From assembly GCA_965248265.1 (NCBI GenBank), contig CBDFJF010000001.1, positions 960,001 to 1,024,000 on the forward strand: a DNA stretch of 64,000 nt, read 5' to 3'. The notes under the pieces were generated by a model, which had not been told where the DNA came from, made no database searches, and saw only the letters and a list, made by a program, of their open reading frames with translations. Shown in pieces: positions 25,707-29,734 of the stretch. The DNA is from Candidatus Latescibacterota bacterium (GTDB lineage Bacteria; Latescibacterota; UBA2968; UBA8231). The position numbers and the translations under genes were made by a program. Positions within the stretch are counted from its first letter, which is position 1; every line of letters begins with the position of its first letter.

Positions 25707-26546
25707 GTGCGAATCGGACTGATATCAGACACTCATTGTCCGCAGCGATGTCCACACTACCCCGCCACGCTTGGTCAGGTATTTCGTGCAGTCGACCTGA
25801 TCCTGCATGCGGGAGATGTGGGTGAGCTCTGGGTGTTGGAGGCACTCGGCAACATCGCACCTGTTGTTGCTGTCCACGGAAACGATGAGACTGATGAAGC
25901 TCAGCGCCAGTTGCCCTTTGAGCAGATCGTATCAGTCGAGGGGAGGCGGTTACTCCTATCCCACGGCCACGAGACGAGCCAAGAACGGGAGCTCGAGGCA
26001 CGAGCCGGTGACGCCTGGCCCCCGAAGCTGGAGAGGCGCCTGAAACGGGCTAAAGACGCAGATGCGGAGATCTTCATACATGGCCATACCCATATCCCTA
26101 TGTGCTGGACCAAGACTGGACTCACCTTGATCAACCCTGGCGCGATTGCTTCGTGCAACGCAATCTCTCGACAGGTAACCCAGACCGTTGCGATTCTCGA
26201 TATCGCTGGAAATGGGTCACCGCGCGTCCGGCACATCGACCTGTCCAAGCCAGATGCACCGTTTGATCCGCGTTTCGACGTCAAATCCGGCTTCAGGAAT
26301 TCGTTGGCGCGTTTCTCGGAATCGATTGCGGAGCCTGAGATTGAGAATTGCCTGACGCGCGACTGGTTGGATGGCCTCGAGGATTTCGGGGCGTTCAGGG
26401 CATGTTGCCTGCGTCTTTCTCACGAATGTTGGCGTGGCGAGCGACAACAGATCACTGTGCTTGACGTTATTGCTGCTGTCAGGAATGACCCGAAAGTCAC
26501 AAACAGGGACAAGGAAAGGTGTGAAGCCGTGTTCACGGAGATGTGA
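25707..26546 (+). CDS. Metallophosphoesterase (YfcE-like)
   Basis: ISDTH, HAGD, HGND, HGH, HGHTH, INPG; GTG start after AGGAG. Confidence 0.85.
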   Translation: MRIGLISDTHCPQRCPHYPATLGQVFRAVDLILHAGDVGELWVLEALGNIAPVVAVHGNDETDEAQRQLPFEQIVSVEGRRLLLSHGHETSQERELEARAGDAWPPKLERRLKRAKDADAEIFIHGHTHIPMCWTKTGLTLINPGAIASCNAISRQVTQTVAILDIAGNGSPRVRHIDLSKPDAPFDPRFDVKSGFRNSLARFSESIAEPEIENCLTRDWLDGLEDFGAFRACCLRLSHECWRGERQQITVLDVIAAVRNDPKVTNRDKERCEAVFTEM

Positions 26547-26560
26547 TTACCGCCCCATCC

Positions 26561-26589
26561 TTGACAACGTGCCTGACGCATCGGATATT
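26561..26589 (+). promoter_or_regulatory. sigma70-type promoter of the Gln-leader/tRNA operon
   Basis: TTGACA 26561-26566, 17 bp, GATATT 26584-26589; expected +1 falls at about ATG 26597. Confidence 0.65.
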
Positions 26590-26596
26590 GCGTGGC

Positions 26597-26680
26597 ATGA
26601 GAAATAGCCGCCTTCAGCGTCAGCAACAACAGCAACAGCGAATCCAGAGTTCGTTGGGGCAGCGGCCATCTATGTATTAG
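26597..26680 (+). CDS. Gln-rich attenuator leader peptide MRNSRLQRQQQQQQRIQSSLGQRPSMY
   Basis: 27 codons, 9 Gln, six consecutive (CAG CAA CAA CAG CAA CAG, 26621-26638); overlaps the antiterminator segment; directly upstream of two tRNA-Gln genes. Confidence 0.85.
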   Translation: MRNSRLQRQQQQQQRIQSSLGQRPSMY

Positions 26681-26702
26681 CACGACTGCAAATACTGAGA
26701 TT

Positions 26703-26743
26703 AAAAGCCCCAGCGGACCTTGAGTTCGTTGGGGCTTTTTTTT
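26703..26743 (+). terminator. Intrinsic terminator (attenuator) upstream of the tRNA genes
   Basis: gccccagcggac-cttga-gttcgttggggc followed by T8; the 3' arm gagttcgttggggc is repeated exactly at 26647-26660. Confidence 0.9.
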
Positions 26744-26748
26744 GTTCT

Positions 26749-26820
26749 TGCGGCGTCGTCTAACTGGCAGGATGGCAGGTCCTGACCCTGCAGATCGAGG
26801 TTCGAATCCTCGCGCCGCAG
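26749..26820 (+). tRNA. trnQ: tRNA-Gln (anticodon CTG), atypical C33, CCA not encoded
   Basis: Acceptor TGCGGCG/CGCCGCA, G73; anticodon stem GCAGG/CCTGC, loop TC-CTG-AC; T arm CGAGG-TTCGAAT-CCTCG; followed by CCG. Confidence 0.88.
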
Positions 26821-26831
26821 CCGAATATCGC

Positions 26832-26906
26832 TGGGGTGTCGTCTAACTGGCAGGACACCGGGCCTTGGACTCGGGAATCGGGGTTCGAACCCTCGCACCC
26901 CAGCCA
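26832..26906 (+). tRNA. trnQ: tRNA-Gln (anticodon TTG), atypical C33
   Basis: Acceptor TGGGGTG/CACCCCA, G73, CCA; anticodon stem CCGGG/CTCGG, loop CC-TTG-GA; T arm CGGGG-TTCGAAC-CCTCG. Confidence 0.9.
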
Positions 26907-26958
26907 AATCCGAACTGAAGACACGGTACTGGAGTAATCGGTGCTTACGGAGACTGCG

Positions 26959-27897
26959 ATGTCAACTCAAGATATTCTTGTCCGCGGCGAGCAGCCGGGA
27001 GACGAGAGCCAAATTGACTTGGTCCTCAGCCGCGCATTCGACGGCATGGACGAGGCCAACCTCGTCCGCATGCTGCGGCACAGACAGCCCGGTTTTGATC
27101 GATCCCTGTGTATATGCGCGTTTGTTGGCGACGTCATGGTAGGGTATACCGGCTTCATCCCTTTCGGCATGCGATTGATGGACTCCAGCGTTTCTGCGGT
27201 CGCTGTCGCGCCCGTCGCAGTTGCCCCAGATTTTCAGCGCCGGGGTATCGCCGGCATGATGCTGCGCCGTGGCCACGAAGTAGCACAAGAGGCCGGCTAC
27301 AGGCTCGCCTGCCTCAACGGCCATCCCGACTATTATCCTCGCCACGGCTACATCGCATGCTTCGGCTTCTGCAAGACAATGCTGGATCTCGACGTGTTAC
27401 CCGCGCCACGTATCGAACTGGAGGCCTGGCCTGTACAGGCGGACGATATTGCCTGGTTGATAGGATGTGATGAACGTGAGTGGCATAGTGTCGATTTCAC
27501 CTGGCCGCGAAGCAACGGACTCTGTGAGTGGGCCATCGAGGGGGTCAATGCCGTGATGTGGCGGGCTCGAGACGGGCGACGGGCAGCCTACAGCCTCTGT
27601 CGGCCCGGTCTGCGCGGACCTGGCCGACACCTGGAAACTCTCCTGGGGGACGACCCCGAACTCGTGCAAGAGGTGATTGCCCACATTAAACCTGGAAGAA
27701 TTACGAATCATCCCGCGGGATGGCTTGCGAAAAATGTTCTAAACGAGTCGTGGGCAAAGTGCGAAGCCAATAGCAGTCAGGCGGCGATGGCATATCCTCT
27801 TGTTGACGGCGTGCTTGACCCATATCTTGCCGCCCTCGAATCGGGACAACGTCAAGCGGGCACCTGCAACTGGCCTGTGCCATTCATAATGTGTTGA
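26959..27897 (+). CDS. GNAT-family N-acetyltransferase (YhbS/Eis-like N-terminal domain)
   Basis: VAPVAVAPDFQRRGIAGMML, GHPDYYPRHGY; GGAG RBS before ATG 26959, 52 bp after the second tRNA. Confidence 0.85.
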   Translation: MSTQDILVRGEQPGDESQIDLVLSRAFDGMDEANLVRMLRHRQPGFDRSLCICAFVGDVMVGYTGFIPFGMRLMDSSVSAVAVAPVAVAPDFQRRGIAGMMLRRGHEVAQEAGYRLACLNGHPDYYPRHGYIACFGFCKTMLDLDVLPAPRIELEAWPVQADDIAWLIGCDEREWHSVDFTWPRSNGLCEWAIEGVNAVMWRARDGRRAAYSLCRPGLRGPGRHLETLLGDDPELVQEVIAHIKPGRITNHPAGWLAKNVLNESWAKCEANSSQAAMAYPLVDGVLDPYLAALESGQRQAGTCNWPVPFIMC

Positions 27898-28099
27898 GAT
27901 CGCCGGTTGACGGAGACATGACGAGCTTTTGCGTTGGAGTTGCCCTCGTCACTCGGCCGTCTGTCAGGGCGTCAATCTGCTCAGTTACGGTCCGACCCTG
28001 GTTCTTTAGCTCCGTTCGGCGCTTATTAAGGTTGCCGATTAACTCGTCGGCCCCAGACAATGCCACCGTCCACCCTCCAGAATCCGTTGAGGTTTGACC

Positions 28100-29734
28100 A
28101 TGAACTCGGACACCTACACCGTGAACCACTGGAACGAGGCAGCGCGCGCGCAAGAGCGCTCAATTCTTACAGCGGAGCAGAACTTTACCTTTGATGCGCT
28201 CGGGTTCGTCGTGCTGCCGCAGGTCCTCAGCCTGGCCGAACTGTCCGCGTGCCGCGACAGCAGCGATGGGCTGGGCGACCTCTGCGGCGAGGCCGGCACC
28301 GTCGGGCGCTACGTGCGTGAGCTGTGCCGCGATGGCTTTCGCCAGGACGGCCATGTGAGGCACGTCCCAGCCGGCGCCGCAGGAGGACACGACCAGGCCT
28401 CGCTGCCACTGGAAGGCGGGGTGGATACGCTGGATCGGGCCTACATCAACCTAACGGGGTGGAATGGCCGCAACGCCGATGGAGCTTCGCTCTCGCGGGC
28501 CGGCGGCGACTGGGAAGAGGTCCGCATCCGGCAGTGCCAGGGCTTGGTGGTGGTCGTCGCACTCACGGAGTCTGCAGGTGGCACGTGCCCGCTGGTAGTA
28601 GTACCCGCTACGCACAAGAGCGGGCTGCCTGCCCCGCCGATTCCGTCCTCCAGCCCGTTCGCTGAACGCCCGGTGCTGGCGGCCGGCGACGTGCTGCTGT
28701 GCGCCGCCAGCACGCTGCACGGGGTCTGCCCGCAAGGTGCTGGTGGTGAGCTGCTCATCGTAAATTTCATCTCGCGCTCGGCTCGGCCACAGGTGCCACC
28801 CGAACAGCAGGACGAGGCATCCCTGCCTGCCTGGGCGGAAGAGCTCGGCGAGGCTGAGCGAACCGTGCTGGCGGGCGGCGACTCGCGTCGCGTGCTCCTG
28901 TCGGACGGTACTGCCACCTGGCTGACGCCTGCAGACGATGCCGACGTGGCGCAGCGGGCCTCCTCCCCCCTCGAGTTCGGACGCGGAGACGACGACGCCG
29001 AGCGCTGGGCGTTCGACACCCACGGCTATCTATTGGTTGAGGGCGTCATGGACGATGACTGGATCGATGCGGCCGTGGCGGGCATCGACGCCAACCTCGA
29101 TCGCATGGTGTACCGAGGCACAGGGGACAAGCTTGACGGGGACGTGACGCTTGCTGACATCCCCGGGGCGCCGACGATCTCGGGCACGGGGCGGCCTGAC
29201 CTGAGAGACTTGTTTCAGCTACCGACGCCGCACAATGCGCCTTTCCTCAAAATGCTGGCGCATCCGGCCGTCATCCAGCGCCTGAACTGGATGATTGGAG
29301 CAGGTTACCGGGTAACTCAGAACACGGCCCTGTGCCACGTCAAAGGCTCGAGCGGGCAGATGCTGCACTCGGGAAACGCCAACCCGACCTGCATCGGCAA
29401 GCACTACGAGATGGTGAACGGGCGCGTGCACACGAGGTCAGGCATCAACGTCGCTTGGCAGCTCACCGACGTCGGGCCCGACGATGGCGGGTTTGTCGTA
29501 GTGCCGGGCACTCACAAATCTTGCTACCCTCTGCCGCACTCGGTGCGGACGTGTAACGAGCGCGCTCCGATCCGCCACGTTCCCATGCGTCGCGGGTCTG
29601 TTCTCTTCTTTTTGGGTGGAACTGTCTGTCACGGAGCGTACCGCTGGGAGGCTGAGTTACCGAGGCGGACAGCGCTCTTCACGTACGGGCACGACGCTCG
29701 GCGCCCTTTTGCATGGCCCTCGAGCAAACTGTGA
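28100..29734 (+). CDS. Tandem phytanoyl-CoA dioxygenase-family protein (two domains)
   Basis: Two FDxxG(F/Y) starts, VVPATHKS and VVPGTHKS, TLHG and VCHG. Confidence 0.8.
   Translation: MNSDTYTVNHWNEAARAQERSILTAEQNFTFDALGFVVLPQVLSLAELSACRDSSDGLGDLCGEAGTVGRYVRELCRDGFRQDGHVRHVPAGAAGGHDQASLPLEGGVDTLDRAYINLTGWNGRNADGASLSRAGGDWEEVRIRQCQGLVVVVALTESAGGTCPLVVVPATHKSGLPAPPIPSSSPFAERPVLAAGDVLLCAASTLHGVCPQGAGGELLIVNFISRSARPQVPPEQQDEASLPAWAEELGEAERTVLAGGDSRRVLLSDGTATWLTPADDADVAQRASSPLEFGRGDDDAERWAFDTHGYLLVEGVMDDDWIDAAVAGIDANLDRMVYRGTGDKLDGDVTLADIPGAPTISGTGRPDLRDLFQLPTPHNAPFLKMLAHPAVIQRLNWMIGAGYRVTQNTALCHVKGSSGQMLHSGNANPTCIGKHYEMVNGRVHTRSGINVAWQLTDVGPDDGGFVVVPGTHKSCYPLPHSVRTCNERAPIRHVPMRRGSVLFFLGGTVCHGAYRWEAELPRRTALFTYGHDARRPFAWPSSKL

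Follow-up and report, generated by a model that had tools for sequence, protein, structure and literature searches.

The window analysed here, a 64,000-nucleotide (nt) stretch of a Candidatus Latescibacterota bacterium genome, carries a tandem pair of tRNA-Gln genes, with anticodons CUG and UUG, wherein both anticodon loops contain C33 in place of U33. A search for tRNA genes with ARAGORN and the Rfam covariance model RF00005 revealed two such genes in the whole 64-kb window, both tRNA-Gln by ARAGORN, with limits at 26749-26822 for the ctg gene and 26832-26906 for the ttg gene. The RF00005 scores of 52.2 bits (CUG) and 48.1 bits (UUG) are to be compared with a gathering score of 29. The pair is preceded by a leader that resembles an attenuator and is followed by a gene for a GNAT acetyltransferase (Table 1). 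U33 is almost invariant among tRNAs, the exceptions stated by Grosjean and Westhof (2016, PMC5041475) being C33 in many eukaryotic initiator tRNAs and G33 in Candida tRNA-Ser(CAG).

Table 1. Features of the tRNA-Gln locus, in window coordinates.
Feature	Position	Strand	Description and basis
accessory tRNA-Gln(CUG)	26749..26820	+	loop UCCUGAC, C33, A37; ARAGORN, RF00005
accessory tRNA-Gln(UUG)	26832..26906	+	loop CCUUGGA, C33, G37; ARAGORN, RF00005
C33 of tRNA-Gln(CUG)	26781	+	cloverleaf reading of loop
C33 of tRNA-Gln(UUG)	26864	+	cloverleaf reading of loop
promoter-like site	26561..26589	+	TTGACA, 17 nt, GATATT; consensus scan
leader ORF MRNSRLQRQQQQQQRIQSSLGQRPSMY*	26597..26680	+	27 codons, 9 Gln (CAG and CAA)
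hairpin 1:2	26636..26656	+	arms 26636-26643 / 26649-26656; minimum-energy fold of 26600-26748
antiterminator	26649..26718	+	26649-26660 base-paired to the terminator's 5′ arm, 26707-26718
intrinsic terminator	26703..26746	+	16-bp stem 26703-26739, then T run; scan and fold
GNAT acetyltransferase gene	26959..27897	+	Pfam Acetyltransf_9, E 5e-13

A sequence-only reading of the window had described two genes with C33, intact cloverleaf stems, U1-A72 and G73, identical D loops but diverged stems, and a first gene that ends in CCG and hence needs CCA addition. Each of these observations holds on re-examination. The two loops read as described, the cloverleaf stems are intact, and U1-A72 and G73 are present in both genes. 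Positions 8 to 24 of the D arm (TCGTCTAACTGGCAGGA) are the same in both, whereas three of the four stems (acceptor, anticodon, and T) differ. The CUG gene is followed by CCG at 26821-26823, with CCA not encoded, and the UUG gene encodes CCA. The remaining invariant positions (U8, A14, G18G19, A21, G53, T54, T55, C56, A58, and C61) are canonical in both genes. Thus U33 is the single feature of the tRNA family, among those tested, that both genes lack. We nevertheless keep them in the family because functional tRNAs with C33 and with G33 exist (PMC5041475). A 6258-nt Logan contig (runs X1 and X3, which may stem from the window's own source sample) is identical to the window across 26300-27300 and has C at both positions. 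This letter-for-letter match indicates that neither C was introduced by the assembly of the window.

The sequence-only reading had raised the question of whether the genome holds separate housekeeping tRNA-Gln genes with U33. ARAGORN, run over the whole of the 7.3-Mb genome from which the window derives (G000), made 57 calls, four of them tRNA-Gln, and the two outside the window are such genes: tRNA-Gln(CUG) at G000:C1:2954702-2954775 (loop CUCUGGA), which belongs to a Ser-Ser-Gln cluster that recurs in relatives, and tRNA-Gln(UUG) at G000:C1:3010250-3010324 (loop UUUUGGU). U33 is likewise present in every housekeeping-type tRNA-Gln fetched from relatives. C33 is therefore not a lineage trait, and that explanation is ruled out. 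Indeed, U33 is lacking in none of the 48 other tRNAs of the genome, a set that excludes six doubtful calls, tRNA-SeC, and the window's own pair, which we refer to as accessory. The other three ARAGORN calls without U33 have mismatched stems and no CCA. The accessory genes share 65-69% identity with the genome's own housekeeping tRNA-Gln genes, and their anticodon loops differ from those of the corresponding isoacceptors (UCCUGAC versus CUCUGGA for CUG, CCUUGGA versus UUUUGGU for UUG), as would be expected of a nuclease-evading tRNA. The loops also differ in a second respect, in that the housekeeping tRNA-Gln loops of the lineage (G000 and the relatives' loci L002-L035) carry G37 rather than A37; of the accessory pair, the CUG gene has A37 and the UUG gene G37.

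How widely the accessory genes are distributed was surveyed with a tRNA-Gln covariance model built for this purpose and run on overlapping samples of the family (76 genomes), the class (132), and the phylum (151), in which many genomes are incomplete metagenome-assembled genomes. Accessory-type tRNA-Gln genes were found beyond G000 in only two genomes of one genus in the same family, G042 and G043, and no further example was detected among the 132 class genomes or the 151-genome phylum sample, many of which are incomplete. A BLAST search of the locus against 41 relatives matched housekeeping tRNA-Gln genes only. Five further genomes with three or more hits (G016, G026, G044, G147, and G151) were rejected as candidates, the hits being duplicate contig ends, U33 duplicates, or tRNA-Glu.

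In G042 the two genes are in tandem, the CUG loop being CCCUGAC (C33, A37) and the UUG loop UUUUGGA (U33). G043 carries only one, a UUG gene whose loop, CUUUGGA, again has U33. The CUG genes of G000 and G042 are 94% identical, with four differences in 72 nt. Contigs from relatives that cover the leader, the CUG gene, or both (two X5 and two X7 records) also have C at 26781, and thus no CUG copy seen, whether in G000, in G042, or in the X5 and X7 contigs, lacks C33. Besides the window's genome, C33 of the UUG gene occurs in one near relative only: X5 record 20 shows 27 differences across 26794-27300 and keeps C at 26864. A G042-like contig record has T there. The UUG C33 is a recent change, because the UUG orthologs of G042 and G043 have U33.

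Every one of the 105 stem cells in the five accessory tRNAs of the three genomes is part of a standard pair, and at six stem pairs there are compensated changes on both sides. No shuffle or slid register came near this degree of pairing. Because all 105 cells pair and six are compensated, the accessory genes do not appear to be decaying. The sequence-only reading had argued that the same rare change in two otherwise diverged genes suggests selection, not decay. Its rejection of decay stands. The argument from a shared change is weakened, in that only the C33 of the CUG gene is shared with relatives, the UUG orthologs having U33, and C33 is not rare in accessory tRNAs, as described below.

The accessory tRNAs are also plausible substrates for charging. 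The identity set of Escherichia coli GlnRS comprises the Gln anticodon, U1-A72, G73, and G10. All five accessory genes have the anticodon CUG or UUG together with U1-A72, G73, and G10. Genes for a GlnRS (703 bits, above the NCBIfam cut-off), a GatA (605 bits), and one member of the CCA-enzyme family are present in the genome. Given a GlnRS and a CCA-enzyme family member, both direct charging and CCA addition are possible. The sequence-only reading had interpreted U1-A72 in terms of GatCAB, a framing that is not needed in a genome with a GlnRS above cut-off.

The region upstream of the pair has the anatomy of a ribosome-mediated attenuator. Known attenuators of this type act on amino-acid operons, as in the trp, his, and phe (pheL) leaders. 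The ATG of the leader open reading frame (ORF) lies 8 nt past the −10 hexamer, and the leader mRNA may be leaderless. The promoters of G042 and G043 consist of TTGACG, 17 nt, and TACATT, followed after 7-8 nt by ATGAGAA. The leader contains a run of six Gln codons, uninterrupted apart from one Arg codon, and its counterparts begin MRTMYSSTSTQPQRQQQRIQ... in G042 and MRTREAHSGQRQQRQR... in G043. In each of the three leaders, Arg codons occur among the Gln codons (QRQQQQQQR, QPQRQQQR, and QRQQRQR). The final Gln codon of the run, together with CGA AU, makes up the 5′ arm of hairpin 1:2. The antiterminator fold, computed for 26640-26725 without the 3′ arm of the terminator, has an energy of −34.2 kcal/mol (z −5.6). 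The terminator, whose T run ends 3 nt ahead of the first tRNA, folds at −26 kcal/mol (z −6.3), and none of 200 shuffles was as good.

The same order of promoter, leader beginning with MR and containing a Q/R run, terminator, and tRNA-Gln is found in G042 and G043 (leader loci L017 1850-2056 and L018 2055-2240, minus strand), where the leader folds are less distinctive (z about −2). The region thus combines a regulatory-codon ORF and a terminator with an antiterminator that is mutually exclusive in silico, in an arrangement that is kept in relatives. On this in silico evidence it is a predicted Gln-codon leader attenuator, conserved in three genomes, that would control tRNA genes and not biosynthetic genes. 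Like the trp, his, and phe attenuators, it has a short ORF of regulatory codons, exclusive 1:2, 2:3, and 3:4 hairpins, and an intrinsic terminator. Those leaders control biosynthetic enzymes or a synthetase, whereas that of the window would control tRNAs, perhaps from a leaderless mRNA. No published leader attenuator ahead of tRNA genes was found in the literature searched. If the prediction is correct, a textbook control device would be extended to a new kind of target and would sense the supply of tRNA rather than that of the amino acid. Rfam reports in the window, besides the two tRNAs, nothing other than a sub-threshold match to the cyanobacterial small RNA NsiR1 at 26693-26743 (25.5 bits; gathering score 39). 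This match covers the terminator hairpin only and is probably meaningless.

The sequence-only reading had also asked whether C33 tRNA-Gln genes occur elsewhere, and in what context. Metagenome contigs scanned for tRNA-Gln of this D-arm type with C33 yielded 50 loci, mostly in tRNA arrays. On viral contigs the same C33 pattern occurs at one locus and the U33 version at 120 or more. ARAGORN confirms a C33 tRNA-Gln at 49 of the 50 metagenome loci, representing 37 distinct sequences (29 genes with CUG, 20 with UUG), and C32 accompanies C33 in 45 of these 49 genes. Other tRNAs are present at 42 of the 49 loci, and ten or more tRNAs at 20 of them. Among the non-Gln neighbours of C33 tRNA-Gln at the 49 metagenome loci and the one viral locus, 75 of 379 also have C33, two have G33, and none has A33; these loci were chosen for holding a C33 gene and are not independent. 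Next to U33 tRNA-Gln on viral contigs the count is 33 of 1254 among the matches listed (Fisher p 3e-26), and thus C33 is enriched about eight-fold beside C33 tRNA-Gln (20% versus 2.6%, the latter among the matches listed). C33 appears to cluster in particular elements and to stay a pyrimidine. Near-identical C33 tRNA-Gln genes are found in arrays of differing content (L051, L056, L084, and L092). At each of the 12 loci with two tRNA-Gln genes, C33 is in just one of them, and a pair with C33 in both is therefore unusual even there.

The attenuator does not accompany these genes. Among the 50 C33 tRNA-Gln genes (49 metagenomic, one viral), none is preceded by a Gln-rich short ORF plus a T run; one has a weak Q/R-rich ORF and two have a T run only. 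The window's pair is up to 85% identical to the tRNA-Gln of an array of more than 30 genes (L037) and 81% identical to a viral-contig tRNA-Gln. The pair is closer to array and viral tRNA-Gln (81-85%) than to its own housekeeping genes (65-69%), which points to an array- or phage-like origin.

Some features of tRNA arrays merit description in their own right. L037 4691-7964, from another phylum, packs more than 30 tRNA genes into 3.3 kb, four of them with C33 (Ser-GCU, Leu-GAG, Ala-UGC, and Pro-UGG). Its tRNA-Gln(CUG), which is the gene 85% identical to the window's CUG gene, has U33. In several metagenomic arrays the C33 tRNA-Gln adjoins a tRNA-like gene of 99-101 nt that ARAGORN cannot type, giving it a two-letter "anticodon," cg (L048 2186-2284, L065 7076-7176, and L077 76-174).

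From these observations, the pair appears to be a functional-looking, stall-controlled spare tRNA-Gln set, in which C33 is heritable, tolerated, and typical of accessory tRNAs. Its anatomy, paralogy, conservation, and structural selection are evident from the comparisons above, and we infer from them how it would be induced, charged, and used in decoding. Our preferred explanation, to which we assign a probability of roughly 0.45, is that the pair is a stall-induced back-up for tRNA-Gln whose C33 is adaptive through altered recognition by enzymes directed at the loop. The genes would encode working supernumerary isoacceptors like those of phages and mobile tRNA arrays, and their transcription into tRNAs would occur only while ribosomes are stalled at the leader's Gln codons. 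The stalled ribosome would cover segment 1, segment 2 would pair with segment 3, no terminator would form, and RNA polymerase would read on into the tRNA genes. RNase P and 3′ trimming would release the tRNAs, the CUG tRNA would receive its CCA, and charging by GlnRS would restore Gln decoding and close the loop. Extra tRNA-Gln would be useful if tRNA were short, not if glutamine were short.

As a real, heritable variant that accessory tRNAs tolerate, C33 would most likely alter how the loop is seen by the nucleases or modification enzymes to which the housekeeping U33 tRNA-Gln is subject. Any resistance conferred in this manner would allow the spare set to keep working when the normal set is damaged. 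Known enzymes directed at the loop do rely on this part of the tRNA. The activity of TrmJ from Sulfolobus acidocaldarius is abolished by U33C and that of the E. coli enzyme is not (PMC4105751), CdiA-CT EC536 cleaves between positions 32 and 33 (PMC11724271), and LshCas13a, which cleaves at loop uridines, has tRNA-Gln(UUG) among its preferred targets (PMC11042736).

Two published classes of supernumerary tRNAs offer the closest parallels. The tRNAs of L-arrays (2021, PMC8421152) are, like the window's pair, supernumerary and unlike those of the host, and they are described as silent by default and turned on when translation is impaired, as the pair is predicted to be. L-arrays comprise 20-43 genes, whereas the window has two genes for one amino acid behind a dedicated Gln-codon leader attenuator. 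Thus the pair shares with L-arrays its supernumerary character and its difference from the housekeeping set, and lacks a dense array of about 20 or more genes. A term search of the main text of the L-array article returned no mention of position 33. Phage tRNAs (van den Berg et al. 2023, PMC10264068) resemble the window's in that a second copy carries an anticodon-loop change, with survival of tRNA depletion as the proposed benefit, and such changes have been proposed to permit escape from host anticodon nucleases. The window's genes differ in being chromosomal and wired to a stalling sensor, and no nuclease is known for the organism. A term search of the main text of that article likewise gave no mention of position 33, on which its supplementary loop-mutation tables may bear.

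Several points weigh against an adaptive C33. The UUG orthologs of G042 and G043 have U33, and the system therefore exists without C33. The agreement among CUG copies is weak evidence for selection, because the divergence among them is small. No nuclease partner was identified in the genome. U33C makes no difference to the Kluyveromyces lactis gamma-toxin, which cleaves tRNA-Gln(UUG) (PMC2275089). In yeast, the phenotype of tRNA-Gln(CUG) U33C was linked by the authors to poor CAG decoding, and U33 was noted as a possible GlnRS determinant (PMC3664417); C33 may simply cost efficiency. Lastly, array tRNAs also depart from U8 (14%), A14 (30%), and A21 (21%), deviations that may partly reflect the register chosen by ARAGORN, and C33 may be part of a general loosening in such tRNAs.

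Some of these points are also consistent with an explanation that we regard as tentative yet quite possible, namely that the pair is a functional, stall-induced spare set in which C33 has no role of its own. Under weaker constraint T would have drifted to C, a pyrimidine at position 33 being good enough in seldom-used accessory tRNAs. The U33 of the UUG orthologs, the limited divergence of the CUG copies, the single C33 at each two-tRNA-Gln locus, the departures at U8, A14, and A21, and the indifference of gamma-toxin are all consistent with neutral tolerance. However, every other invariant position is kept in both window genes, and position-33 deviations in the arrays are 75 C, two G, and no A. 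The enrichment of C33 beside C33 tRNA-Gln (20% versus 2.6%, the latter among the matches listed) argues for a shared pressure or tolerance and not for independent drift, and arrays that otherwise differ in content retain near-identical C33 tRNA-Gln genes.

A more ambitious form of the adaptive explanation, which we consider unlikely as it stands, would be that C33 marks "hardened" spare tRNAs and that the chromosomal pair described here is wired to a sensor of Gln-codon stalling. The cell would sense that its normal tRNA-Gln pool is being lost, for instance to an anticodon-loop nuclease or modifier that depends on U33 and derives from a phage, a competitor, or the cell's own toxin, and would substitute copies that escape recognition by the attacker. 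If true, hardened spares would be a self-contained countermeasure against tRNA depletion, and the clustering of C33 in certain tRNA arrays would be accounted for in the same way.

That C33 alters decoding is improbable. By loosening the U-turn, it might slow decoding or increase first-position wobble onto UAG and UAA, making the pair tuning or read-through tRNAs under stall conditions. U33 does contact nucleotides 35 and 36 and shape the loop (PMC5041475), and besides the yeast U33C allele with its poor-CAG phenotype there are other alleles that suppress UAG (PMC3664417). However, there is no sequence evidence here of programmed read-through targets, the anticodons are the ordinary CUG and UUG, and the logic of the leader fits simple supply.

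The sequence-only reading had also suggested a non-ribosomal donor role, in which the tRNAs would serve as Gln (or Glu) donors to a transferase, or as regulatory RNAs, with C33 keeping them off the ribosome. Some dedicated donor tRNAs are known, and these are recognised by the loss of ribosome and EF-Tu features together with a conserved, linked transferase. The GNAT gene begins 52 nt 3′ of the tRNA pair with no terminator between them, and it may be cotranscribed with the pair. It lies beside the tRNAs in the window and in the near relative X5 record 20, but not in G042 or G043, and no neighbour gene is conserved at the accessory locus across G000, G042, and G043. Each of the three loci does have a gene for a PhyH dioxygenase nearby, but with E values of 0.006 and 2e-4 and 20-29% identity the three are not orthologous. 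As PhyH matches number 153 in the genome, we take the adjacency of these genes to the tRNA loci as chance. Moreover, G18G19 and T54-T55-C56 are intact in both genes, and the predicted sensor is ribosomal Gln decoding itself. A non-ribosomal role is thus disfavoured and, like altered decoding, unlikely to account for the pair.

Decay of dying duplicates, or assembly error at the two Cs, is the least probable explanation and is largely refuted: the CUG gene has lost its encoded CCA and reads CCG, but the independent contig assembly is identical, the stems are fully paired with compensated changes, the promoter and attenuator are conserved in three genomes, and real decaying copies in the genome look different (a tRNA-Arg-like gene with an 8-nt loop and a tRNA-His with a spoiled T-loop).

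Elongator tRNAs are treated as having U33 practically without exception, yet bacterial tRNAs that are well formed and lack it appear to be maintained here, and a fifth of the tRNAs beside C33 tRNA-Gln in accessory arrays share C33. The exceptions named by Grosjean and Westhof (PMC5041475) are, like the pair as we interpret it, functional tRNAs without U33; they are eukaryotic special cases, whereas the examples described here are bacterial elongators, with C33 across many isotypes in accessory arrays. No publication on C33 in bacterial accessory tRNAs was found in the article texts searched. If C33 does alter recognition by nucleases or modifiers, it would be a simple sequence mark for "protected" tRNAs and would provide a handle on the purpose of supernumerary tRNA sets.

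Other observations concern the rest of the genome. The PhyH (PF05721) dioxygenases, represented in the window by a copy at 28094-29734, are a greatly expanded family, with 153 matches in the 7.3-Mb genome and none in 14 control genomes. A third tRNA-like gene with C33, at G000:C2:3427691-3427762, has a 72-nt class-I body, the loop CCUGAGA, and the anticodon UGA. Its acceptor stem has two mismatches, it lacks CCA, and ARAGORN types it as Ser, without a long variable arm. At G000:C2:1057786-1058029 are degenerate copies of the tRNA-Arg(UCU)/tRNA-His pair of C1:2268060-2268448, wherein the anticodon loop of the Arg-like copy is 8 nt long and the T-loop of the His copy is altered; upstream of these spare tRNAs there is no leader like that of the accessory pair and no leader ORF. 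Within G000:C1:2287873-2298131, a second "tRNA-Arg(ACG)" at 2298055 matches the gene at 2287873 in its 3′ half only, and this copy looks like a repeat left by an element of about 10 kb that integrated into the tRNA-Arg gene.

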